DNA of 64,000 bases from Thermoprotei archaeon (GCA_017857595.1 JAFMCU010000003.1:7403-71402); one strand, 5' to 3'; numbered from the stretch's first letter, positions 5,327 to 49,502 are shown. Made by a program: numbers and translations. The notes: generated by a model from the letters alone, not told the origin.

Positions 5327-5992
5327 TTACTCAGGTTTTAATATTACTAGTTCTATTTCTTTAGGTAATTTTCCTTTAAGGTATTCAGCGTCTGCTTCTG
5401 AACCAACTATAGTACCATAATGCATTGGAATTACAATTTTAGGTTTAATATCTTTAGCTGCCTCTATAGCTTCTTCTTTAGTCATAACATAAGTGCCTGA
5501 GACGGGTAATAATGCAATGGTTGGCTTTAAGTTTTTCATTTCTGGTATATGATCTGTATCTCCTGCATGATAAATTGATGTCTCTCCAAATGTTACCACA
5601 TAACCTACTTTATTGTCTTCTTTAGGGTGAAAAACAACACCTGGTGCTCTAAATTTATTTACATTATATGCATTTACTGCTTTAACCTTGATTAGGTCAA
5701 AGCTTAATTCGTCTCCTGGTTTAACATAGTATTTTTTGTTCTCTTTAAATTTTTCTAATTCATCTTTGCATTCGGTCGGTGCAATAAGAACGGTGCCTTT
5801 TGACAAAACTTTATTTATATCTTCAGGTGATAGATGGTCAAAATGGTTATGTGATATTAGTATGTAATCTGCTTTTTCTTTTTGCGGCTTTATTTTATAA
5901 GGATCAAAATATACATACTTACCTTTGTATTCTACTTTAAAGCTGTCATGACCTAGCCATGTTATTTTAAGGTCTTTATAGTTGTAAACCAT
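5327..5992 (-). CDS. UPF0173-family metallo-beta-lactamase-fold hydrolase
   Basis: KITWLGHDSF...ILISHNHFDHLS (an HxHxDH-like motif); about 220 aa, typical of the archaeal UPF0173 family. Confidence 0.65.
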   Translation of the reverse strand: MVYNYKDLKITWLGHDSFKVEYKGKYVYFDPYKIKPQKEKADYILISHNHFDHLSPEDINKVLSKGTVLIAPTECKDELEKFKENKKYYVKPGDELSFDLIKVKAVNAYNVNKFRAPGVVFHPKEDNKVGYVVTFGETSIYHAGDTDHIPEMKNLKPTIALLPVSGTYVMTKEEAIEAAKDIKPKIVIPMHYGTIVGSEADAEYLKGKLPKEIELVILKPE

Positions 5993-6028
5993 ATACTTAA
6001 AAACTTAATACAGAGTTTTAAATTTAAT

Positions 6029-7978: not shown

Positions 7979-9264
7979 AATAATATCCCTCTTATTAAAT
8001 CAGAAATATCCTTTATAAGCTTGATAGGTCCTACTTTACTAATAATAACATCTCTAATTCTCTTTATCTTTATTTCTTTGGGTTCACCATCAACTGTATG
8101 CCATAACCTTAGGATATCCCTCAACATTTCAGGATAAGAGCTAAAAAAGTGCTTGTTCTTGTACAAAAAAGGAGGAATTCTTCTAAATTTTCTAAGATCT
8201 CTAAGAACGAAACTGTTTCTCAATTTTGTTTCATAAATTTTTAGTACATTTGCACTAAAATCTTTCACTTTATGAGCATAAATAGCTGTTTCGCCAGCTA
8301 ATATACCAGATTCTGCTGCTAAGTTTGTTCCTTCCCATCCCACAACGTTAACTAGTAATGCAGCATCTCCAACTACCATCATACCGTTAGTATACAATTT
8401 TGGTATTGCATTATATCCTCCTTCTGGTATAAGATGAGCCGAATATTCCTTTAAAATTCCATCTTTTATGTAAGGATAAATTGCAGGATGTCTTTTGAAC
8501 TTCTCGTAAAGCTTATTCGGTCTTATGTTATTACTTACTAGATCGCTAAGAAGTACACCTATTCCAACAGATAATGCTTCTCTATCAGTATATAAAAATC
8601 CGCCACCTGTCATACCCTTTAACGGTCCTCCAATAATTGTGGCAGCAACACCTTCTTCAGTCTTTACTTGGAACATTTCATCTATTTTTGTCCTTTGTAC
8701 TTCAATTACTTCTTTTACACCTAATGCTAATTGGTGGGGTTTCCATTCATCATGAAGACCTGCTTTTTGTGCTAATAACGAATTTGCACCATCTGCAGCG
8801 ATAACAATATTCCCAAATAGCTCTCCTCTATCTGTATTAACACCTATCACCTTTCCATCCTTTATTATAGGTTCAAGAGCTTGTGTTCTTGTTATTAACA
8901 TAGCACCAGCTTCTTGAGCTTTTTTTGCATACCATGCATCAAATTTTGCTCTTAAAGCAGTGTATCCACTGGGATTATTTTCAAAAGCATCATCCCTATA
9001 GACAAGTTTAATAAATGAGTCATCGAGTAAAATCCAATATTGGTATTCAACTACTTTTCTTTCTAAAGGTGCAGTTTTTACAAAATCAGGGATTAATTTT
9101 TCAAAGGGATGCTTAAATAAGACACCCCCGAATAAATTTTTTTCGCCTGGTATATTTCCTCTTTCAATTATTACAGTATTTAATCCGGCTCTTGCAGTAA
9201 CTATAGCTGCAGACACTCCCGCAGGTCCTGCACCTACTACAACAACATCAAATTTTTCAACCAT
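7975..9264 (-). CDS. fixC: Electron-transfer flavoprotein-quinone oxidoreductase FixC (FAD-dependent)
   Basis: FDVVVVGAGPAGVSAA FAD-binding motif; 429 aa; clustered with etfBA and fixX. Confidence 0.8.
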   Translation of the reverse strand: MVEKFDVVVVGAGPAGVSAAIVTARAGLNTVIIERGNIPGEKNLFGGVLFKHPFEKLIPDFVKTAPLERKVVEYQYWILLDDSFIKLVYRDDAFENNPSGYTALRAKFDAWYAKKAQEAGAMLITRTQALEPIIKDGKVIGVNTDRGELFGNIVIAADGANSLLAQKAGLHDEWKPHQLALGVKEVIEVQRTKIDEMFQVKTEEGVAATIIGGPLKGMTGGGFLYTDREALSVGIGVLLSDLVSNNIRPNKLYEKFKRHPAIYPYIKDGILKEYSAHLIPEGGYNAIPKLYTNGMMVVGDAALLVNVVGWEGTNLAAESGILAGETAIYAHKVKDFSANVLKIYETKLRNSFVLRDLRKFRRIPPFLYKNKHFFSSYPEMLRDILRLWHTVDGEPKEIKIKRIRDVIISKVGPIKLIKDISDLIRGILF

Positions 9265-28801: not shown

Positions 28802-29158
28802 ATGTTTGAATTTATACCTTTAGCTGTTGCACTTGTTATATCAGCAATTGTAGCAGCATTAATCGTTGGAATAAACTATTTATTAATACCTTCTTCACCA
28901 AAAGATGATATGAGGTTTTCACCATATGAATGTGGTGAAGAAGTTATAGGAGAAGCTCAAGTAAGAATGAATGTGCAATATTATGTATACGGTATAGCTT
29001 ATTTGATAACTGACATACTTGCAGTTACAATTATAATATGGGCTTTCTATCAATACAATTTATCCATTTCCAGTATTGTAGCACTTTCATTCTTGGCATT
29101 TTCTATGCTTTTTGGAATCTTATATTCGATTAGAAAGAGGTTGTTAAGATGGGTATAA
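28802..29158 (+). CDS. nuoA: NADH-quinone oxidoreductase subunit A. The ORF as given starts at 28748; internal ATG at 28802 (MFEFIPLAV...) is the more plausible start.
   Basis: SPYECGEE motif and 3 TM segments. Confidence 0.75.
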   Translation: MFEFIPLAVALVISAIVAALIVGINYLLIPSSPKDDMRFSPYECGEEVIGEAQVRMNVQYYVYGIAYLITDILAVTIIIWAFYQYNLSISSIVALSFLAFSMLFGILYSIRKRLLRWV

Positions 29159-38614: not shown

Positions 38615-39226
38615 ATGAAGGTAGTAAAATTTGTATTTCCTCCATTGGACAATAACGTTTATTTAGCTTACGATAAATCAGAAGGAGTAGTTATAGATGT
38701 TGCTTTAGGAGCTGATGCTATAGTAGAATTTGTTAAGAAACATAATATCAACATTCTTTATTTAATTAATACACATGCCCATATTGATCATACAGCTCAT
38801 AATTATAAATTAAAGGAATTACTTGGAATAAAAATAGCTTTACACAAAAATGACCACGCATTATTAAAGGAATTTTTCAATTCAAATTATCCGTTTATAC
38901 ATGAAGAATTTAAATATGTTGAACCTGATGTTCTTTTAGAGGACGGGCAAATTATCAAATTTGGTAATGTAGAAATGAAAGTAATCCATACACCAGGTCA
39001 CACACCAGGTTCTATTTGTTTATATGTTGAGAATGAAGGCATTCTTTTTTCTGGTGATACATTATTTGCGGGCACATATGGTAGAACTGATTTCCCATAC
39101 AGTAGTGAGGAAGATATGATTAAAAGCTTAAGAAAGTTAAGCAATTTACCTAAAGACGTAAAAGTATATCCAGGTCATTATGAGGAAACAAAAATAGGTT
39201 ATGAAAGTTGGCTAAAAGAAATTTGA
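38615..39226 (+). CDS. Metallo-beta-lactamase-fold hydrolase (glyoxalase II-like)
   Basis: INTHAHIDHTAHN (HxHxDH), HTPGHTPGS; 203 aa. Confidence 0.6.
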   Translation: MKVVKFVFPPLDNNVYLAYDKSEGVVIDVALGADAIVEFVKKHNINILYLINTHAHIDHTAHNYKLKELLGIKIALHKNDHALLKEFFNSNYPFIHEEFKYVEPDVLLEDGQIIKFGNVEMKVIHTPGHTPGSICLYVENEGILFSGDTLFAGTYGRTDFPYSSEEDMIKSLRKLSNLPKDVKVYPGHYEETKIGYESWLKEI

Positions 39227-39262
39227 AAGTAATGTTAAATATAAGCTTACATTGAAAAATTT

Positions 39263-40342
39263 GTGGATATAAAAATTGAATATTTAAAGAAGTATTTAAG
39301 TAGTGTATACAATTCGAATGTTGAAATAATTGATATAAAAGGAATTAAAGTTGAAAAAGGTGAAATAAAGGGATATGGTTATGGCATCCCTATCATAATC
39401 GAGTATAAAGTTAATGGAGAATTGAAAAAAGCTGTTTTAGAAACGGTTAAGGAAGATATTTTTGGGCATGAATATATTTCTGATCGTGTGTCTAATATTA
39501 TTTTAGCTTATAAAACATTCAACAGACTTCCAAAACATGCAAAAGCTATTTCAATCGGATATTTTACAGAATCAGATGATATAGTAAAAATTGATGATTT
39601 CAAAGAATTTTTCTTATTAGTGGAGTTTATACAAGGTCAATTATATTACAAAGATTTAGAGGATATTAAATCTAGAGGAGAATTAAAGGATAAAGACATA
39701 GAAAGGTGTCGTAGACTTAGTAATTATTTAAGTCAAATTCATTCTTTGAAAAGCAAAGATTATAAGCTATACATGCGTAGAATTCGCGACCTAATAGGTC
39801 ATGGAGAATGTATCTTTGGGCTTGTTGACAGCTATCCTAGTAGTTTTGAACATTTTAGTGAGAAAGAATTTATCGAATTTGAGAAGAATCTAATAAATTG
39901 GAGATGGAAGTTGAAAAAATATTCGCATAGATTAAGTGTTATTCATGGAGATTTTCATCCGTGGAATATTTTCTTTTTTGATAACGATGACTTTATTGTT
40001 AATGATAGGAGTCGTGGTGAATACGGAGATCCTGCAGATGATGTATCAGCCTTAACTATTAATTATCTTTTTTATTCCATCCAGAAATACAAAAAATTAC
40101 ACGGACCGTTCGAAACGTTATGGCTTTCATTTTTCGAAAATTATCTTAGATTCACTGATGATGAAGAAATTTTAAGAGTTATACAGCCTTATTTTGCATG
40201 GAGGTCGTTAGTTGTAGCAAATCCTATCTGGTATCCTAACTTAGATTCTGCGGTTAGAAAATTATTATTTAATTTTACAAAAAACGTGTTAAATATTGAT
40301 TTTTTTGATTTCAAAAATGTCAACGATCTTTTAAATGAATAA
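39263..40342 (+). CDS. Phosphotransferase (APH/choline-kinase-like) family protein, GTG start
   Basis: VIHGDFHPWNIFF (HGDxxxxN catalytic loop) and downstream D-containing motif; 359 aa; 3' end overlaps cysC by 8 nt. Confidence 0.5.
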   Translation: MDIKIEYLKKYLSSVYNSNVEIIDIKGIKVEKGEIKGYGYGIPIIIEYKVNGELKKAVLETVKEDIFGHEYISDRVSNIILAYKTFNRLPKHAKAISIGYFTESDDIVKIDDFKEFFLLVEFIQGQLYYKDLEDIKSRGELKDKDIERCRRLSNYLSQIHSLKSKDYKLYMRRIRDLIGHGECIFGLVDSYPSSFEHFSEKEFIEFEKNLINWRWKLKKYSHRLSVIHGDFHPWNIFFFDNDDFIVNDRSRGEYGDPADDVSALTINYLFYSIQKYKKLHGPFETLWLSFFENYLRFTDDEEILRVIQPYFAWRSLVVANPIWYPNLDSAVRKLLFNFTKNVLNIDFFDFKNVNDLLNE

Positions 40343-40856
40343 CACTTTTTGTATATGGTTAACTGGATTACCATCATCAGGTAAATCAACAATAGCAAAA
40401 CTTTTAAAAGAAGAATTAAAAAAGTTAAACGTTAACGTATTCATTCTTGATTCAGACGATTTAAGAAAAATATTAACTCCAAATCCAAAATATACTGAAG
40501 AAGAAAGAGATTGGTTTTACAATGTTTTGGTTTATTTTGCAACGATACTGGTTCAGAATCAAGTAAATGTAATAATAGCTGCAACTGGAAACAAAGCTAA
40601 ATACAGAGAGAATTGTAGAAGATCTATTAAAAACTTCATAGAAGTTTATATAAAATGTTCTTTATCAGAATGTTTAAAAAGAGATTCAAAAGGTCTCTAC
40701 AATCTTGCTTTGCAGGGTAAGATAAATAATTTACCCGGATTACAAGATATTTATGAAGAGCCTTTAAATCCTGAATTAGTTGTTGAAAGTGATAAATTAA
40801 CTCCTGAACAAAGTGCTAATTTGATAATGCAAGAAATAAATAAAAGATTTCTTTAA
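40335..40856 (+). CDS. cysC: Adenylyl-sulfate (APS) kinase
   Basis: IWLTGLPSSGKSTIA (P-loop), FILDSDDLRKIL, and FIEVYIKCSLSECLKRDSKGLYNLALQGKINNLPGLQDIYEEP, closely paralleling E. coli CysC FIEVFVDTPL...RDPKGLY...GIDSVYEAP. Confidence 0.7.
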   Translation: MNNTFCIWLTGLPSSGKSTIAKLLKEELKKLNVNVFILDSDDLRKILTPNPKYTEEERDWFYNVLVYFATILVQNQVNVIIAATGNKAKYRENCRRSIKNFIEVYIKCSLSECLKRDSKGLYNLALQGKINNLPGLQDIYEEPLNPELVVESDKLTPEQSANLIMQEINKRFL

Positions 40857-40883: not shown

Positions 40884-41210
40884 ATGGCTTTAGATCCTGT
40901 TGAATATTATAAATTGTTTATTAAAGTATTCGGTAGCCCCGTTAGATTAAAAATATTAAATTCATTAAAGAGCTCACCTAAATCTGTACAAGAGATCTGT
41001 AAGGAGTTAAATTTAGAGCAAAGTTTAGTATCTCATAATCTAAAATGCCTTTTAGATTGCGGTTTTGTGAATAATAAAAGAGAAGGTAAAAGAGTTATCT
41101 ATTCGATTAATGAAAGTATAGTATTTCCGTTATTCGAGTTAATAGATAAACATATTGAAAAATACAAGGATAAGCTAATTTCATGCGGAATAATTAAATC
41201 TGAATCGTAA
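40884..41210 (+). CDS. ArsR/SmtB-family HTH transcriptional regulator
   Basis: VRLKILNSLKSSPKSVQEICKELNLEQSLVSHNLKCLLDCGFV, an ArsR-type wHTH; 108 aa. Confidence 0.7.
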   Translation: MALDPVEYYKLFIKVFGSPVRLKILNSLKSSPKSVQEICKELNLEQSLVSHNLKCLLDCGFVNNKREGKRVIYSINESIVFPLFELIDKHIEKYKDKLISCGIIKSES

Positions 41211-41226
41211 CTCATTTAAACAAATA

Positions 41227-41244
41227 TAATATAAGCTTATATTA
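41227..41244. promoter_or_regulatory. 18-bp perfect palindrome TAATATAAGCTTATATTA in the arsR-dsrE intergenic region, followed by a direct repeat AATGTTATA-ac-AATGTTATA; candidate operator overlapping a TATA-like element
   Basis: Read directly: self-complementary over 18 nt, centred about 35 nt upstream of the dsrE-like start. The core TATAAGCTTA recurs at 39239-39248 upstream of the kinase operon. Confidence 0.4.
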
Positions 41245-41270
41245 ATGTTATAACAATGTTATAGAGTAAT

Positions 41271-41654
41271 ATGAGTCAAAAACAGGAGTTACATATTGTG
41301 TTAGTTTCCAACGACCCTCAAAGAGTTTACCCTGCTTTAACATTGGTATTGGCATCTACAGCTTTAGGCGTTAAAGCTCATTTATATTGTACGATGAGCG
41401 GTTTGGATGTTGTTAAAAAAGAAACAGCAAATAAAATAACATTGCAAGGCATGCCTCCTATTGATAAGTATCTTAAAGATGCAATCGATTCAGGTACTTA
41501 TGTTTGTGCCTGTGCTCCTTCTAAAGAATTTTTAAATAAAATGGGTATAACTGAAGAAACAGTATTTCCAGGTGTAAAATTGGAAGATGCTGTTACATTC
41601 TTAAACAAAGCGTTGAATGCTGCAAGGAATGGGGGAATAGTTTTATTTGTTTAA
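41271..41654 (+). CDS. DsrE/DsrF-like sulfur-relay family protein
   Basis: 127 aa; LHIVLVSNDPQRVYPALTLV...GTYVCACAPS with the conserved Cys; immediately upstream of a TusA-like gene. Confidence 0.6.
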   Translation: MSQKQELHIVLVSNDPQRVYPALTLVLASTALGVKAHLYCTMSGLDVVKKETANKITLQGMPPIDKYLKDAIDSGTYVCACAPSKEFLNKMGITEETVFPGVKLEDAVTFLNKALNAARNGGIVLFV

Positions 41655-41662
41655 ATTCAAAT

Positions 41663-41902
41663 GTGAGTATTATGGAAACAAAAAAGCAAATTCTTGACGT
41701 TAGAAATTTAATGTGTCCTTATCCTTCTTTTCTTACAGTTAAGAAGTTAAATGAAGTTGAGAAAGGGACTATTTTGGAAGTCATTTGTGATAAAGTTGAG
41801 ATGACAATTAATTCTTTAACAACAACGCTAAAGAATAGAGGATATAAATTTGAAGTAAAAGAAGATAAGGATAATTATATAGTTGAGGTGTACAAAGATT
41901 AG
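41663..41902 (+). CDS. tusA: TusA-like sulfurtransferase
   Basis: LDVRNLMCPYP (CPxP motif); 79 aa. Confidence 0.7.
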   Translation: MSIMETKKQILDVRNLMCPYPSFLTVKKLNEVEKGTILEVICDKVEMTINSLTTTLKNRGYKFEVKEDKDNYIVEVYKD

Positions 41903-42947
41903 GACAGAACAATTTGAATTCAACATTAAGAAAATTGATAATTGGATATTAAACATCGATAAAATAAAGTCTGGAAAATTCATAAGGGATGAACTTAAAG
42001 TAGGAAATACGCCAATAGTAAGGTTAGAAAATATAGATACAAATAATTTAGAACTTTATGCAAAAATAGAATGGTTGAATCCTTTCGGGTCAATAAAAGA
42101 TCGAGCTGCTTATTGGATGATAAAAATTGCAGAAGATAAAGGAATTCTTAATAAAAATAAGACTGTTATAGAACCTACATCAGGTAACATGGGCATAGCG
42201 TTAGCATGCATAAGCATGAGCTTAGGATATAAATTCACTGCTGTGATACCCCAAGCTGTAAGCGAAGAGACAAAAAACTTGATTAGATTACTTGGAGCAG
42301 AATTATTGGAAACTTCAGATGACCTCTGTCCTAGAGTTGGAAAAGGCACTGATCAATGCATTGCATTAGCAAAAGGAATTGTTAATTCATTCCCCAATGA
42401 ATATTTTATGCCAAATCAATATGAAAATGAAGCTAACTTCTTAGCACATTATAATGGAACAGGGCCTGAAATTTTTAATCAAATGAATGGTAATATAGAC
42501 TATTTTATTACAGGTATAGGTACAGGAGGTACTGTAACAGGTGTTGGTGCATATTTAAAAGAACGTAAGGATGTAAAGATTATAGCAGCTCAACCTCAAC
42601 CAAATCATCACATCCAAGGATTGAGAAATCTACAAGAATCTGATAAACCTGCAATTCTATCAAAACGATTTCATGTTATAGATGATATATTTACGATTTC
42701 AGATGAAGAAGCATTTAGAGCTGTTAGACTTATTGCAGAAAAAGAAAAACTTTTAGTTGGTCCTTCTTCTGGTGCTGTTCTAGCAGCAGCCTTAAAGTTA
42801 GAAGAGAAGGGATTAAAAGGAAAAGCTGTTTTAATCTTTGCTGATGACGCTTTGAAGTATAGTTCTGTTTATAGACAATTTAAGGTTCTAGACGAAGAAA
42901 CTTTAAGAAGCTTAGAAGAGCTGATTTCTCTTCAAAAGGTCAATTAA
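41883..42947 (+). CDS. Cysteine synthase / cystathionine-beta-synthase-family PLP enzyme
   Basis: VGNTPIVRL, GSIKDRAA (PLP Lys), GNMGIALA, and a GTGGT Gly loop; 354 aa; overlaps tusA by 20 nt. Confidence 0.7.
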   Translation: MRCTKIRTEQFEFNIKKIDNWILNIDKIKSGKFIRDELKVGNTPIVRLENIDTNNLELYAKIEWLNPFGSIKDRAAYWMIKIAEDKGILNKNKTVIEPTSGNMGIALACISMSLGYKFTAVIPQAVSEETKNLIRLLGAELLETSDDLCPRVGKGTDQCIALAKGIVNSFPNEYFMPNQYENEANFLAHYNGTGPEIFNQMNGNIDYFITGIGTGGTVTGVGAYLKERKDVKIIAAQPQPNHHIQGLRNLQESDKPAILSKRFHVIDDIFTISDEEAFRAVRLIAEKEKLLVGPSSGAVLAAALKLEEKGLKGKAVLIFADDALKYSSVYRQFKVLDEETLRSLEELISLQKVN

Positions 42948-42982
42948 TAAAAATATATATGTAATATATTTCATATGAAATT

Positions 42983-44410
42983 ATGGGCATAAAGGAATAT
43001 GATTTGGCAATAATTGGTTATGGAGCTGCTGGATTTTCTGCTGCAATAAAATATAGTGAATTAACTGAAGGTTCAGGAAAAGTAGCATTAATAGGCAAAG
43101 GCCCTATTGGAGGAACATGTGTAAATGTCGGTTGCGTACCTTCTAAATATTTATTGGAAGCCTCACATAAGTATTTTTATTCAAAGTTTTCAAAGTATGC
43201 AGGCATAAAAGGTGTTTCTGCTGAAATAAACTTCGGTGCTTTGATTGAAAGCCTAAATGATTTCGTACAAAATATGAGAAAGTCAAAGTATGAGGACGTT
43301 ATTAGTAACTATGAAAATGTAGAAATAATTAAAGGAGATGCCAATATTATATCCGATTCAAGGGTCGTTGTTAAAAATGGGAAAGAAGAGTTAAAATTAT
43401 CATTTAAAAATCTATTGATTTCTGTAGGTTCAAGACCTTCAGTACCGCCTATAGAAGGTTTGAAAGATACAGGATATTTAACGAGTGATGATGTTTGGAA
43501 ATTGCGAGAGTTACCTAATAAAATTGGCATAATTGGTGGTGGAGCAATAGGACTGGAAATAGGTCAGGCATTAGCACATCTAGGAGCAAATGTAACAATA
43601 ATCGAGGCATTACCTAGAATAGCTTATACAACTGAACCAGAGATTTCTGAAATTCTTGAAGATATTTTAAAAGAAGAAGGAATTAAAATTTATAAACGTG
43701 TAAGGGTTTCTAAAGTTTATAAGTCTGGAAATGAAAAAGTTGTAAAAATATTATCACATGATAAGGAATTAAACCTCAATTTTGATGAGATAATTGTAGC
43801 CACAGGGAGAAGGCCTAATACTGACAATTTAAATTTAGAAGTTGCTAATATTAAAGCGAACGAAAAAGGCTACATATTAACTAATGAAAGAATGCAAACT
43901 TCAAATCCCAAAATTTATGCAGCTGGAGATTGTGTCTCTAAAAAGCTGATGCTTGAAACAGTTGCGGCTAGAGAAGGCGTTGTTGCTGCTACAAATATTG
44001 CAGGAAAGGAATCTAAAATGGATTATTTGCCTGTTCCATGGGCAATATTTACCCATCCTTCTGTTGCATCAGTAGGCTATACAGAAGATGAAGTAGTAGA
44101 AAAATACAATGCATGTAGTTGTAGAATTATAGAAATAACTGATATACCTAAAGGTCTCATATTAAAAGAAGATAAGGGTTTAGTTAAAGTGGTTATACAC
44201 CCAGAAAACGGAAAAATTCTAGGTGTTCATTCTTTGGCTCCAAATTCTATTGAATTCATTATTGAAGGCGCAATGGCTATTAAGTATGGGTTAACTATTT
44301 GGGATATAATTGAGACAACGCATATATTTCCAAGCATTAGTGAAGGAATAAAACTTGCTTCTCAAGCATTTATTAGAAACATTAAAGCAATGTCTTGCTG
44401 TGTAGAATAA
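42983..44410 (+). CDS. merA: Mercuric reductase-like pyridine nucleotide-disulfide oxidoreductase (core MerA without NmerA domain)
   Basis: GPIGGTCVNVGCVPSK redox-active CxxxxC nearly identical to the MerA core. The C-terminus SISEGIKLASQAFIRNIKAMSCCVE parallels MerA ...EGLKLAAQTF..DVKQLSCCAG, including the diagnostic vicinal Cys pair. 475 aa. Confidence 0.6.
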   Translation: MGIKEYDLAIIGYGAAGFSAAIKYSELTEGSGKVALIGKGPIGGTCVNVGCVPSKYLLEASHKYFYSKFSKYAGIKGVSAEINFGALIESLNDFVQNMRKSKYEDVISNYENVEIIKGDANIISDSRVVVKNGKEELKLSFKNLLISVGSRPSVPPIEGLKDTGYLTSDDVWKLRELPNKIGIIGGGAIGLEIGQALAHLGANVTIIEALPRIAYTTEPEISEILEDILKEEGIKIYKRVRVSKVYKSGNEKVVKILSHDKELNLNFDEIIVATGRRPNTDNLNLEVANIKANEKGYILTNERMQTSNPKIYAAGDCVSKKLMLETVAAREGVVAATNIAGKESKMDYLPVPWAIFTHPSVASVGYTEDEVVEKYNACSCRIIEITDIPKGLILKEDKGLVKVVIHPENGKILGVHSLAPNSIEFIIEGAMAIKYGLTIWDIIETTHIFPSISEGIKLASQAFIRNIKAMSCCVE

Positions 44411-45415: not shown

Positions 45416-45700
45416 ATGTCTCAAATAATGGTTAATAAAAGGAATGGTTCTAAAGAACCCTTTATAATAGAAAAAATAGTTGTAAGCTGTGTTAAGGCTG
45501 GTGCTGATATTGAAAGTGCAAGAAAGGTTGCGAAAAATATTGAGAAAGTTTTAGAACAGAGAAAAGTAGAGGTTGTTGATTCTAATGAATTGACCAAACT
45601 TGTTTTTAATGAGCTTAAAAGATTAAATGAAGAATGGTATAAAAATTGGATTGTTTATGATAAGGCAGTAAAAAGGAGAGATACAAGTAAGCTTGTTTAA
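45416..45700 (+). CDS. Standalone ATP-cone domain protein
   Basis: MVNKRNGSKEPFIIEKIVVSCVKAG...VEVVDSNELTKLVFNEL fits the ATP-cone consensus (V.KRdG..E.F...KI); 94 aa, with no attached catalytic domain. Confidence 0.5.
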   Translation: MSQIMVNKRNGSKEPFIIEKIVVSCVKAGADIESARKVAKNIEKVLEQRKVEVVDSNELTKLVFNELKRLNEEWYKNWIVYDKAVKRRDTSKLV

Positions 45701-46113
45701 TATAGTATTTTTTTATACTTAGAAATAGAATAAACTAGGCTTACTATTATAAGAATTGCAGATACATGAGCTATAGTACAATATAAACAAATATAGCCTA
45801 TAACTCCTATTTCAACAAAAATTAAATAAATCAAAGAACCAATGCCAAGAAACATAAAAATAACATGAATTAATACGTCATCATGTCCAGTTAAAGATAA
45901 TAATAGAAAAGCTATAAACCATATCATACCTAATAATGACCAAGGTATTCCAAATAAATGTGAATACGGACTATTCAATACATTTTCGCAACTTATAAAA
46001 GATAAATTTGTATTGCAACTTAACGTAGCATTAGATTCAAAAAAAGTAATATAGCTTGAATCTGAAAAACCCAAAAGAGAAAAAGCTAATATAATGTATC
46101 TAATAATAGTCAT
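45697..46113 (-). CDS. Vitamin K epoxide reductase (VKOR)-family membrane oxidoreductase
   Basis: 4 TM segments in 138 aa; loop Cys pair (LSCNTNLSFISC) followed by SPYSHLFGIPWSLLG, and a CxxC in the last TM helix (ICLYCTIAH). Confidence 0.55.
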   Translation of the reverse strand: MTIIRYIILAFSLLGFSDSSYITFFESNATLSCNTNLSFISCENVLNSPYSHLFGIPWSLLGMIWFIAFLLLSLTGHDDVLIHVIFMFLGIGSLIYLIFVEIGVIGYICLYCTIAHVSAILIIVSLVYSISKYKKILY

Positions 46114-46843
46114 TACATTTTGGTATCAAGGATAATATGAATTGATTTACATTGGGTAAAGTTATGTAACTTGATAATTTATTTAGCGCATTTAAAATCG
46201 CATTTACTAACTGCTGGCTTTCTTGATAAACTGCTTGATATAGCTGTCCTTGTTTAGAACTTATCATTTGTTGTACTTGTTGGAATGATAATCCTAAAAA
46301 TAATGCTGGGCTGATACCAGAGCCTATTCTAAAATATATTCCACCTACAGAAATAAACGGTATTGCGCCGCCTGGGTCATATGTACTAAATAGTTGTTCT
46401 TCTAAAGAATTCATTTGTTGCAACGATACGTTACCATATCTATTACTTAGCTCAACTTCCAAAAATTCAATTTTATTACTTTTGTAGATCGCATCAACAA
46501 AAGTATAAGTTGGTATATTAGGATATGTTTCTTCGTAAGGTGAACTGTAAATTGGTTGTAAGTTGCTCCAATTCCCAAAATGAGATAGAGCCATCACAAT
46601 TGCCCATCTTTCTGCAGCACAATAGGGACAGTATTCTGCACCAATATATATAAATGCTAACTTTCCATTTTGTGTAATAATTGGGTTATTTGGATAGTAT
46701 GTTAAGTTTGTAGCATAAACACCTGTTACTTTATTCGATTCTTGATTCATAATTATATAAATTGAAATTATTAAAATTAAAGCTACAATAAAAATAAATA
46801 TAAAAATATTTCTATTCTTGTTATTCTTTTTTGACTTTTTCAT
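46100..46843 (-). CDS. Membrane-anchored thioredoxin-fold protein (DsbA-like partner of VKOR)
   Basis: N-terminal signal/anchor helix, then AEYCPYCAAERW (CPYC thioredoxin active site); 247 aa; overlaps the VKOR gene start. Confidence 0.5.
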   Translation of the reverse strand: MKKSKKNNKNRNIFIFIFIVALILIISIYIIMNQESNKVTGVYATNLTYYPNNPIITQNGKLAFIYIGAEYCPYCAAERWAIVMALSHFGNWSNLQPIYSSPYEETYPNIPTYTFVDAIYKSNKIEFLEVELSNRYGNVSLQQMNSLEEQLFSTYDPGGAIPFISVGGIYFRIGSGISPALFLGLSFQQVQQMISSKQGQLYQAVYQESQQLVNAILNALNKLSSYITLPNVNQFILSLIPKCNDYY

Positions 46844-48074: not shown

Positions 48075-49502
48075 TTATATAAACAAAGGCTTTTCATAGC
48101 TTTTTTGCTTAAATATTGTACAATATCTAGCTCTTTGCTCTAATTCAGGGCATCTTCTTAATTTAAAGCAATTTGCATGTGTTATATAAGTCAACTCCTT
48201 TAAATCTTCTTTAATAAACACTTCATTTATTTTGTTATTTATCATGCTTGCTATGATTTGAGTTTCAGCTTGTGCTAACTCACAGCATCTATTTCCTATG
48301 AAGCCTCTAAAATTGAAAATATTATAGCCATCTAGTCTTAACGTTGAAATCATAGCTAAGTTAGATGGTAAAACTATTATAGCATCGTTTTCATCTTCAT
48401 TTTTTAATTCTTCATAAAGATTAATTGAATCATTTAAAAATTCCACATACTTTTTTTGTTTATCACTGTTTAATGTTCTGATCGAATTTGGAACTATCAT
48501 CTCCATCCTCTCTGCTGCTTCATATAAACTTATTGATTGTTGTTGAATAGTTCTATGTCTTATTATTTGGTGTCTACTTACAAGACTATCTTTAACGCCA
48601 AAAAGGAAAAATAAATCATTGAAATCTCTAAAGTTGCCTTCTTTTACTCCTTCAACTATAATATTCTTTATTTCATCTTTTGTGAATTTCTTGATTGGTT
48701 CTACATTATATGATATCAAATTAACTTCATTTTTTCCATTCTTAGAAAATACGTTCTCTATTTTTTTCGCAAAATTTGAAGATGCAAATGGAAAAGGGTT
48801 AGGATAAAATTTGCCTATCTTTATTTGACTACTTACAACATTCACTAAATTTCTATATTCTATGCTAAGGGAATCACTTAAATTGTTAATTAAATCAGTC
48901 CATATTGAAGGAATTTTTAAGCTATGTTCTTTATAATATCTGATGGTTGATAACATGTGGACTATATGACTTAAGTTTATGCTACAACTGATAAATGTAC
49001 CTATGCACAACGGTAAATGATATCTTGCATCTTCTTCAGGTTTTCTTGTTTCTAAAACTTGAATTTCGGACATCAATTCGTTATAAAAAGAATAAGCTCT
49101 CTCTACATAACTTATAATTTTATTCTCTTTATTTTTTAGTGTGTTAGGAATGAAGATAAAAATGTTCTTTTCTTCTTTCTCTTTAATTAATGGCATCGTA
49201 TATCTTAATGACTGTTGTAGAAAATTGCTTCCTATTGAATATGATACTAGCGCTAATGTTGCAAGTCTGGGTAAAATTAAAGAAGCATGTATATTTGGCA
49301 TTTCCAAAATAGATGAATAGCCATCTTTAATTGCTGCTATTATATCTGAACTTCTTTTTTCAACTTCCTCCTCATTCAATTCATAATCGATATAATGTGG
49401 AGTTTTTTTACTCCATGTAGAAATTGTTTCGGAAATTAATCGCTTAAAGGATATATTGCATTGAATATCGATAATACTTGCAGATCTTAAAATCTTTATC
49501 AT
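48075..49502 (-). CDS. thyX: Tandem-duplicated flavin-dependent thymidylate synthase (ThyX)-like protein
   Basis: First half: ...LE(M)-18 aa-SYS-IGSNFLQQSLRY... keeps SxRY but has SYS in place of RHR; ARYHLPLCIGTF matches ThyX ARivLPLnlyTrF. Second half: IIRHRTIQQQSISLY keeps RHR but loses the Arg of SxRY; IVLPSNLAMISTL...NIFNFRG. 475 aa, about twice a normal ThyX. Confidence 0.55.
   Translation of the reverse strand: MIKILRSASIIDIQCNISFKRLISETISTWSKKTPHYIDYELNEEEVEKRSSDIIAAIKDGYSSILEMPNIHASLILPRLATLALVSYSIGSNFLQQSLRYTMPLIKEKEEKNIFIFIPNTLKNKENKIISYVERAYSFYNELMSEIQVLETRKPEEDARYHLPLCIGTFISCSINLSHIVHMLSTIRYYKEHSLKIPSIWTDLINNLSDSLSIEYRNLVNVVSSQIKIGKFYPNPFPFASSNFAKKIENVFSKNGKNEVNLISYNVEPIKKFTKDEIKNIIVEGVKEGNFRDFNDLFFLFGVKDSLVSRHQIIRHRTIQQQSISLYEAAERMEMIVPNSIRTLNSDKQKKYVEFLNDSINLYEELKNEDENDAIIVLPSNLAMISTLRLDGYNIFNFRGFIGNRCCELAQAETQIIASMINNKINEVFIKEDLKELTYITHANCFKLRRCPELEQRARYCTIFKQKSYEKPLFI

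Follow-up and report, generated by a model that had tools for sequence, protein, structure and literature searches.

We analyzed a 64,000-nucleotide (nt) stretch of DNA from a Thermoprotei archaeon (GCA_017857595.1, JAFMCU010000003.1:7403-71402; hereafter, the window), in which positions 40884 to 44410 carry five consecutive plus-strand open reading frames (ORFs) encoding, in order, an ArsR-type regulator, two sulfur carriers of the DsrE and TusA families, a cysteine-synthase-like enzyme, and a flavoprotein reductase. We consider it probable that this locus consists of two juxtaposed and separately controlled units, namely a minimal ArsR-type mercury-resistance (mer) system and a sulfur-relay/cysteine-synthase unit. 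Given that the mer and the sulfur parts each appear to have a control site of their own, the locus probably represents an ordinary mercury-resistance system lying beside sulfur genes, with no new combined pathway. The genes and control regions concerned are the following:

40884-41210, plus strand: ArsR/SmtB-family regulator, 108 amino acids (aa) (Pfam HTH_5, NCBIfam NF033788)
41237-41263, plus strand: dsrE promoter region, with a TATA-like box TTATATTA (41237-41244) and a palindrome TATAACAATGTTATA (41249-41263)
41271-41654, plus strand: DsrE-superfamily sulfur-carrier protein, 127 aa, with Cys81 in CACAPS (Pfam DrsE_2/DsrE)
41663-41902, plus strand: TusA-family sulfur carrier, 76-79 aa, with MCPYP (Pfam TusA)
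41883-42947, plus strand: fold-type II pyridoxal phosphate (PLP) enzyme of the CysK/CysM/CBS clade, 354 aa (PALP, motifs)
42950-42991, plus strand: merA promoter/operator, with a TATA-like box and two overlapping inverted repeats
42983-44410, plus strand: mercuric reductase MerA, core form, 475 aa (TIGR02053, signature residues)

The genes are separated by 60 nt (arsR-dsrE), 8 nt (dsrE-tusA), and 35 nt (PLP enzyme gene-merA), while tusA and the PLP enzyme gene overlap by 20 nt; in gene calls of identical metagenome contigs, tusA starts at the ATG at 41672, versus 41663 here. The five plus-strand ORFs, their coordinates, and their spacings are all as reported in a first-pass annotation of this DNA, whose gene identifications were also right, since Pfam and NCBIfam models support all five families. 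The motifs quoted in that annotation are likewise present (MCPYP in TusA; GGTCVNVGCVPSK and ...EGIKLASQAF...SCCVE in the reductase). A single operon running from the regulator to merA, on the other hand, sits poorly, on sequence evidence, with the separate conserved TATA-like boxes and distinct palindromes that precede dsrE and merA. The window has a G+C content of about 29%, and its sequence recurs on Yellowstone metagenome contigs (record names BSEYNP.../BSDYNP...). The five-gene order is repeated on independent Yellowstone contigs and in L007/L042, a relative lineage whose MerA is 73% identical to that of the window, which indicates that the arrangement is real and inherited and not an accident of assembly.

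The reductase is a predicted core MerA

The reductase scores 543 bits on the TIGR02053 MerA equivalog (NCBIfam cutoff, 454.45), while its 373.7 bits on the TIGR01350 lipoamide dehydrogenase model fall under the cutoff of 408.8; its domains match Pyr_redox_2 (225.9 bits) and Pyr_redox_dim (93.6 bits) in Pfam. Among solved structures, its five best matches are all MerA enzymes (Lysinibacillus 5x1y, Metallosphaera 4ywo, and Tn501 1zk7 plus variants), with lipoamide dehydrogenase structures ranking after them, about 40 bits lower. The published criteria for MerA are a redox-active Cys pair, a C-terminal vicinal Cys pair (628/629 in Bacillus), Tyr264, and a residue 605 that is Tyr in bacteria and Phe in archaea (PMC3466566); in thermophiles, Glu317 is additionally paired with Phe441' (PMC4500099). 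All of these signature residues are found in the window protein (C46/C51, C472/C473, Y103, F449, and E325). The redox-active CxxxxC lies in GGTC46VNVGC51VPSK; the C terminus, ...AMSC472C473VE, aligns with the SCC of 5x1y, 4ywo, and 1zk7; Tyr103 (SKYEDV) aligns with Tyr100 of the Tn501 core; and Phe449 (HIFPS) and Glu325 (LMLETV) align with Metallosphaera MerA. A check of the MerA tyrosines, suggested in the first-pass annotation, thus found Tyr103 in place and an archaeal-type Phe449 at position 605.

The MerA-like active site and C-terminal Cys pair that had been noticed initially are therefore upheld by the equivalog, by the relatives, and by the signature residues. We assign the reductase, on its sequence, as a bona fide core MerA and predict that it reduces Hg(II). 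As a true MerA, it does not fall with the lipoamide or CoA-disulfide reductases, a grouping that had been named beforehand as the result that would speak against a MerA-like enzyme. The NmerA domain is absent from the window protein, as is usual for archaeal MerA. A regular-expression scan for TRASH/HMA metallochaperones, also suggested earlier, found none within the 64-kb window and returned spurious 40-aa ORFs only, and a tblastn search of the window for the Cys-rich DUF7128 protein encoded at other ArsR-MerA loci gave no match. Outside the window lineage, the closest MerAs (55-58% identity) have neighbors unrelated to those of the window. At locus L125, the ArsR is 67% identical to that of the window and the MerA just 41%; MerA and ArsR therefore do not have a single history in common.

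A candidate ArsR operator upstream of merA

A metagenome scan with an alignment of the ArsR subfamily returned 80 loci (L043-L125 are ArsR-homolog loci). Sixty of 75 ArsR homologs are preceded by a TATA box and then by TATG-N10-CATATG (e.g., L074, about 5965-6005; L124, 2425-2470). Since translation likely starts at the ATG that ends this repeat, the genes of these homologs are suggested to be leaderless and autoregulated. In the window, an exact match to the pattern lies upstream of merA, where an A/T-rich TATA-like box (42950-42959) precedes the inverted repeat TATG-N10-CATATGA (42958-42978) and a second repeat, TATG-N10-CATA (42974-42991), overlaps the first and spans the merA ATG. Using a weight matrix built from 50 unique operators of ArsR homologs, we scanned the window on both strands and found that the site upstream of merA is the top match in all 64 kb, with a score of 14.7. 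A second exact operator-like match (28909-28929; score, 13.6) is located inside a NuoA-like coding region and was taken as a chance occurrence. No comparable operator was found by the pattern and matrix scans of the window upstream of arsR or dsrE.

In L007, the best matrix matches are again upstream of merA, and the operator block TATATGTAA.ATATTTCATATGA is about 90% conserved. Moreover, TTTCATATGAAATTA, a 15-nt core, recurs unchanged at L124 in the operator and start region (2425-2470) of the ArsR homolog, and ATGAAATTA, at 42975-42983 in the window, equals the first three codons of that homolog (2452-2460). This identity suggests that the merA promoter may derive from an arsR promoter, as a captured ancestral copy still carrying a remnant of the arsR 5' end. 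At L008, no ArsR operator was found within 300 nt of the merA start; at L009, the only TATG-N10-CATA match lies just inside merA (position 8013); and at L122, a different palindrome is located upstream of merA (L122 and L123 were inspected by eye).

A mer-linked ArsR subfamily with a CmtR-like cysteine triad

The regulator matches Pfam HTH_5 (PF01022; E-value, 1.4e-15) and scores 71.3 bits on the NF033788 metalloregulator model (cutoff, 55). We compared it with CmtR (Rv1994c), the Cd(II)/Pb(II) sensor of Mycobacterium tuberculosis, using a reference sequence identical to PDB 2jsc. The two share the ArsR/SmtB fold and an aligned Cys triad, Cys55 and Cys59 of the window protein aligning with CmtR Cys57 and Cys61, and Cys101 with CmtR Cys102. 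In CmtR, Cys57 and Cys61 of helix alpha-4 and the C-terminal Cys102 of the partner subunit serve as metal-site residues; in the window subfamily, Cys55, Cys59, and Cys101 are invariant in 14 members. The window ArsR is predicted to have a thiolate metal site of this CmtR-type (alpha-4C) design. Because identity to CmtR is low (32% over 75 residues) and the score on the NF047906 equivalog is under the cutoff (41.6 vs. 150 bits), orthology was rejected, and what the two proteins have in common is a similar design of the sensing site, known here from sequence; the genomic partners of the window ArsR type are MerA and MerB. A BigR/SqrR persulfide sensor, for which the criterion is a conserved Cys pair in alpha-2 and alpha-5, was rejected as well, as the score on NF040642 is 34 (cutoff, 155) and Cys39 is not conserved, being Ser in a 76%-identical ortholog.

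The gene neighborhoods link the subfamily to mer genes. All full-length reductases beside the ArsR homologs of the 80 loci carry GGTCVNVGC.PSK and a (S/A)CC(S/T/V)E end, signature motifs that identify them as MerA. MerA lies within 2 kb downstream, on the same strand, in 23 of the 60 ArsR-homolog loci that have at least 600 nt of downstream flank, and MerA, MerB, or an HMA P-type ATPase lies within 4 kb of the ArsR homolog in 35 of 75 loci, MerA and MerB being the commonest neighbors of the subfamily. One 67%-identical homolog is followed by a 173-aa ORF and then by a signature-complete MerA. In Sulfolobus and Streptomyces, mer is known to be repressed by ArsR-type proteins (PMC3466566), and the window ArsR is likely an ArsR-type mer regulator, that is, a repressor responding to a thiophilic metal (Hg) or to thiol stress.

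These neighborhoods also bear on a different view of the regulator, in which it would be a general thiol-stress or redox sensor, switched by a Cys55-Cys59 disulfide or by S-modification, with merA as part of a wider thiol-stress regulon. Members of the subfamily are found upstream of glutaredoxin/thioredoxin-like and thioredoxin-reductase-like, DsbD-like, DUF3105-thioredoxin, and IscS-IscU genes, and the CxxxC pair, in the helix after the recognition helix, could serve as a redox switch. We nevertheless regard this view as plausible but rather doubtful, considering that MerA and MerB are the commonest neighbors, that the three-Cys arrangement matches the CmtR Cd/Pb site, and that ArsR-type repressors control mer in Sulfolobus and Streptomyces (PMC3466566). 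It concerns the inducer only and is otherwise compatible with two separately controlled units.

The same loci yielded further observations. A small Cys-rich protein (weak DUF7128 match; CxxC...CxxxC...C) is encoded between the ArsR homolog and MerA or thioredoxin genes at these positions:

L098, 6322-6540: Cys-rich DUF7128-like protein
L108, 4532-4726: Cys-rich DUF7128-like protein
L124, 2771-2947: Cys-rich DUF7128-like protein
L048, 859-1020: Cys-rich DUF7128-like protein

By analogy with the TRASH protein MerH, it could be a metallochaperone. A subclade of ArsR homologs lies directly upstream of IscS and IscU (L086, L099, L106, L113, L117, and L119-L121); most of its members are without the C-terminal Cys, its operator is a related one (CATATGAAT..ATTCATATG), and it may comprise Fe-S or thiol regulators. 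In L106 (2020-3540), an intein with a LAGLIDADG homing endonuclease domain interrupts the IscU/NifU gene. In L045 (7097-8261), the MerA homolog downstream of a 62%-identical ArsR is broken into several short ORFs, which may reflect a pseudogene or sequencing errors.

A distinct palindrome upstream of a widespread DsrE-TusA pair

The dsrE gene is preceded by another kind of element. Its palindrome (41249-41263) follows the TATA-like box and lies 7 nt ahead of the dsrE ATG, and TATAAC-N3-5-GTTATA has this single match in the window, versus 0.03 expected. The palindrome occupies the same place upstream of dsrE in L007, in L041, in nine Thermoplasmata/Methanomassiliicoccales loci, and in three Brockarchaeota/Thaumarchaeota loci. 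In L010 (Brockarchaeota), four exact palindromes and one variant lie at most 40 nt upstream of five transcription units, which encode an HMA P-type ATPase; DsrE with FTR1; a CysM-like PLP enzyme; a YeiH-like membrane protein; and a threonine-synthase-like PLP enzyme with ThiS. Outside the window, the palindrome was located at the following coordinates:

L010: 57-71, 6064-6078, 8032-8046, and 8167-8181
L019: 5974-5988
L041: 5976-5991
L050: 2040-2054

In L050, a hemerythrin gene together with a further DsrE-family gene lies downstream of it. Since the arms of the palindrome are conserved in sequence and show no covariation, we read it as a protein-binding site, and it appears to be a putative operator of an archaeal sulfur-carrier/sulfur amino-acid regulon.

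The DsrE-like protein scores 40.8 bits on PF13686 DrsE_2 (cutoff, 25) and also matches DsrE. Cys81 is nearly invariant in the family alignment, and the family profile matches structures 3pnx, 3mc3, and 2qs7, with whose active-site Cys that of the family is aligned. TusA scores 50.6 bits on PF01206 (cutoff, 28.6) and stays under the cutoffs of both the E. coli TusA and the YedF equivalogs. Homologs of DsrE (50-80% identity) were found in 32 archaeal genome loci, and in most of them tusA directly follows dsrE (Nitrososphaerales, Thermoplasmata, and Methanomassiliicoccales). The other neighbors of the pair are varied and of housekeeping type (Hel308, an MBL-fold protein, an eIF-2B-like protein, Rad50/Mre11, and FTR1), and at none of these 32 other archaeal genome loci does MerA or a window-type ArsR lie beside it. 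DsrE-TusA is an old gene pair spread across archaeal phyla without MerA. In L041 (5875-6385), a Thermoprotei genome, DsrE is cut short of its active-site Cys, with about 63 conserved residues left, and for TusA a start codon is present only on a 40-aa C-terminal ORF; this truncation of dsrE and tusA may be due to a deletion or to an assembly fault.

The presence of sulfur carriers next to a flavoprotein raises the possibility, already entertained in the first-pass annotation, of a persulfide or polysulfide reductase in place of mercury resistance. The MerA-like enzyme would then be a disulfide, persulfide, or polysulfide reductase recycling DsrE or TusA, and the locus would parallel the dihydrolipoamide dehydrogenase gene beside dsrE3A-dsrE2B-tusA in Sulfolobales. 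In Metallosphaera cuprina, as in the window, a DsrE-family gene adjoins a TusA gene, with the gene for a class I flavoprotein disulfide reductase beside them (PMC4175335), and no mercury transporter or chaperone was found near the window genes. This explanation is nonetheless very improbable, as the reductase scores above the MerA equivalog cutoff and below that for lipoamide dehydrogenase, carries the Cys pair at the C terminus, Tyr103, and the archaeal E/F' pair, all specific to MerA, and is preceded by a putative operator of a regulator subfamily that elsewhere flanks MerA and MerB. The M. cuprina locus contains hdr-like genes and a dihydrolipoamide dehydrogenase, whereas no hdr-like or lipoate-binding genes adjoin the genes described here and their reductase is MerA. 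The DsrE3A group, which is the one linked to the dehydrogenase gene, has a Cys-X7-Cys motif (PMC4175335), as does M. cuprina DsrE3A; in the window DsrE, only Cys81 is conserved and no Cys follows eight residues later, so that DsrE3A identity was rejected and the Sulfolobales sulfur-oxidation arrangement is not a good model for this unit.

A cysteine-synthase-like partner enzyme

The PLP enzyme, which we class as cysteine-synthase-like and of the beta-replacement type, scores 237 bits on PALP in Pfam and stays under the cutoffs of the cysKM (283.7 vs. 344), cysK (265.5 vs. 351), and cysM (235.8 vs. 394) equivalogs. O-acetylserine sulfhydrylases are its closest matches among solved structures, and SIKDR, with its Lys, TSGNMG, GTGGT, and PSSGA can all be recognized in its sequence. 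The start of the PLP enzyme gene overlaps or abuts tusA in three lineages. An ortholog follows DsrE-TusA only in the window lineage, L007/L042, and L041, and MerA follows the sulfur genes only in the window lineage and L007/L042. That the partner of the sulfur carriers is a cysteine synthase homolog points to assimilation and away from sulfur oxidation; the most economical reading is a relay of protein persulfide or thiosulfonate feeding a cysteine-synthase-type reaction.

Two control sites and the case for two units

In the model that we favor, an ArsR dimer would bind the TATG-N10-CATA repeats (42958-42991), between the TATA-like box and the merA start, and block transcription initiation at merA. 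The repressor would be released once its Cys55/Cys59/Cys101' triad is engaged by Hg(II) or some other thiol-reactive agent. Core MerA would take Hg(II) on Cys472/Cys473, hand it over to Cys46/Cys51 of the partner subunit, and reduce it with NAD(P)H and FAD to volatile Hg(0). The dsrE-tusA-cysK-like genes (41271-42947) would be transcribed from their own promoter, with their different palindrome bound by another factor, and DsrE and TusA would carry activated sulfur on cysteines, probably feeding the coupled cysteine-synthase-like enzyme. In this model we infer that ArsR binds the merA operator and that the transcripts are independent, as well as what the inducer is and in which direction and by what chemistry sulfur is transferred.

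The mer half of this model resembles merR-merH-merA-merI of Sulfolobus (Saccharolobus) solfataricus, which, like the window, combines an ArsR-family repressor with a core MerA that is without NmerA and of the archaeal Phe605 type. Schelert et al. reportedly placed, in 2006, the Sulfolobus repressor site between the TATA box and the start. S. solfataricus has the TRASH chaperone gene merH, whereas no TRASH chaperone was found in the window. Unlike in S. solfataricus, the window regulator gene lies 1.8 kb from merA, with the three sulfur genes between them.

Several observations weigh against separate control. The merA site scores 14.7, compared with a median of 26 for the training sites and 13.6 for the chance site in a coding region. 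The window arsR is without the autoregulatory operator present in its relatives, implying that its regulation differs from theirs. No obvious terminator is seen in the 35-nt spacer between the PLP enzyme gene and merA, so that transcription from the dsrE promoter may continue into merA. The order of ArsR, sulfur genes, and MerA is common to two lineages whose proteins are 71-86% identical. Finally, as ArsR relatives also adjoin the thioredoxin/glutaredoxin-like, thioredoxin-reductase-like, DsbD-like, DUF3105-thioredoxin, and IscS-IscU genes mentioned above, the sensor may be one for thiol-reactive stress generally and not for Hg(II) only; a neighboring unit that supplies cysteine would then be functionally sensible.

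Shared order alone is no argument for selection, because the whole neighborhood is collinear from an integrase gene to an aminotransferase gene in the window lineage and its relative, as expected of ordinary synteny. The interleaving of mer and sulfur genes is restricted to this one lineage and one relative.

We weighed the alternative of one integrated unit, inducible by Hg(II) or thiol stress, in which all four genes would be co-expressed and sulfur from DsrE/TusA would pass through the cysteine-synthase-like enzyme into low-molecular-weight thiols that buffer Hg(II) and deliver it to MerA, the parallel being oah2 in the mer operon of Thermus thermophilus. The gene packing is tight, the gene order is kept in L007/L042, and ArsR is encoded immediately upstream; a MerA without NmerA, with no HMA, TRASH, or DUF7128 chaperone gene in the window, would find thiol ligands useful; and ArsR relatives also flank thiol-homeostasis genes. 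There is precedent as well for thiol- and cysteine-biosynthesis genes within mer operons (PMC8261052; PMC3466566). In T. thermophilus HB27, as in the window, a sulfur amino-acid/thiol biosynthesis gene lies inside a thermophile mer locus, and this gene, oah2, is co-transcribed with merA and required for Hg(II) resistance (PMC8261052); homologs of cysteine-biosynthesis genes have also been remarked on in putative mer operons (PMC3466566). Unlike oah2, however, the window sulfur genes carry a conserved promoter element of their own, and the regulator is of the MerR family in Thermus and of the ArsR family in the window.

Taken together, we judge an integrated unit to be unlikely. The palindrome in the dsrE promoter differs from the merA element and is common to genomes without neighboring mer genes, and the ArsR-type operator is found upstream of merA only. 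The mer and sulfur sets occur together in 0 of the 32 other DsrE loci and in 0 of roughly 30 other ArsR-MerA loci, and the order kept in L007/L042 extends over the whole neighborhood, as in ordinary synteny. Much the same evidence speaks against the initial proposal that persulfide trafficking is coupled to the reductase in one operon: merA has its own TATA-like box and an ArsR-subfamily operator, dsrE carries a different palindrome that crosses phyla, DsrE-TusA pairs at the 32 other archaeal loci never adjoin MerA, and the closest MerAs outside the lineage have unrelated neighbors.

A more specific form of coupling, drawn by analogy with Thermus, would have the dsrE-tusA-cysK-like unit recruited, in an archaeal mercury or thiol-stress response, as a thiol-supply arm that turns protein-bound persulfide sulfur into cysteine, which would buffer Hg(II) and present it to the chaperone-less core MerA. 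Expression of the arm would be coupled to merA by read-through or dual control. We give this idea a low probability; if true, the unit would be the archaeal equivalent of Thermus oah2, working through a relay of DsrE and TusA.

Neighboring genes

Upstream of arsR (38615-40856) are genes for a GloB-like MBL-fold hydrolase, an APH-like kinase, and an adenosine 5'-phosphosulfate (APS) kinase, the last overlapping the APH-like kinase gene by 8 nt. No sulfate adenylyltransferase was found among the genes called up to about 8 kb away from these three in either direction. The APS kinase stop is 27 nt from the arsR start, and arsR may be co-transcribed with the APS kinase gene. Downstream of merA, a VKOR-family protein adjoins a DUF929 protein (45697-46843), possibly forming a pair for disulfide-bond formation, and a ThyX-domain protein (48075-49502) is unusually long at 475 aa. 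An Rfam scan found no known RNA family in the window.

Significance

As a caution, tight gene packing in AT-rich archaeal genomes is no proof of an operon. If the locus indeed consists of two separately controlled units, it would provide a further documented ArsR-type mer system, in an uncultured Yellowstone archaeon. Three elements could be reused elsewhere: a mer-linked regulator subfamily defined by a CmtR-like Cys triad; TATG-N10-CATATG, its operator, overlapping a start that is probably leaderless; and a second, cross-phylum palindrome that apparently marks an archaeal sulfur-carrier/cysteine-biosynthesis regulon. All three would offer handles on metal and sulfur regulation in archaea that have not yet been grown.

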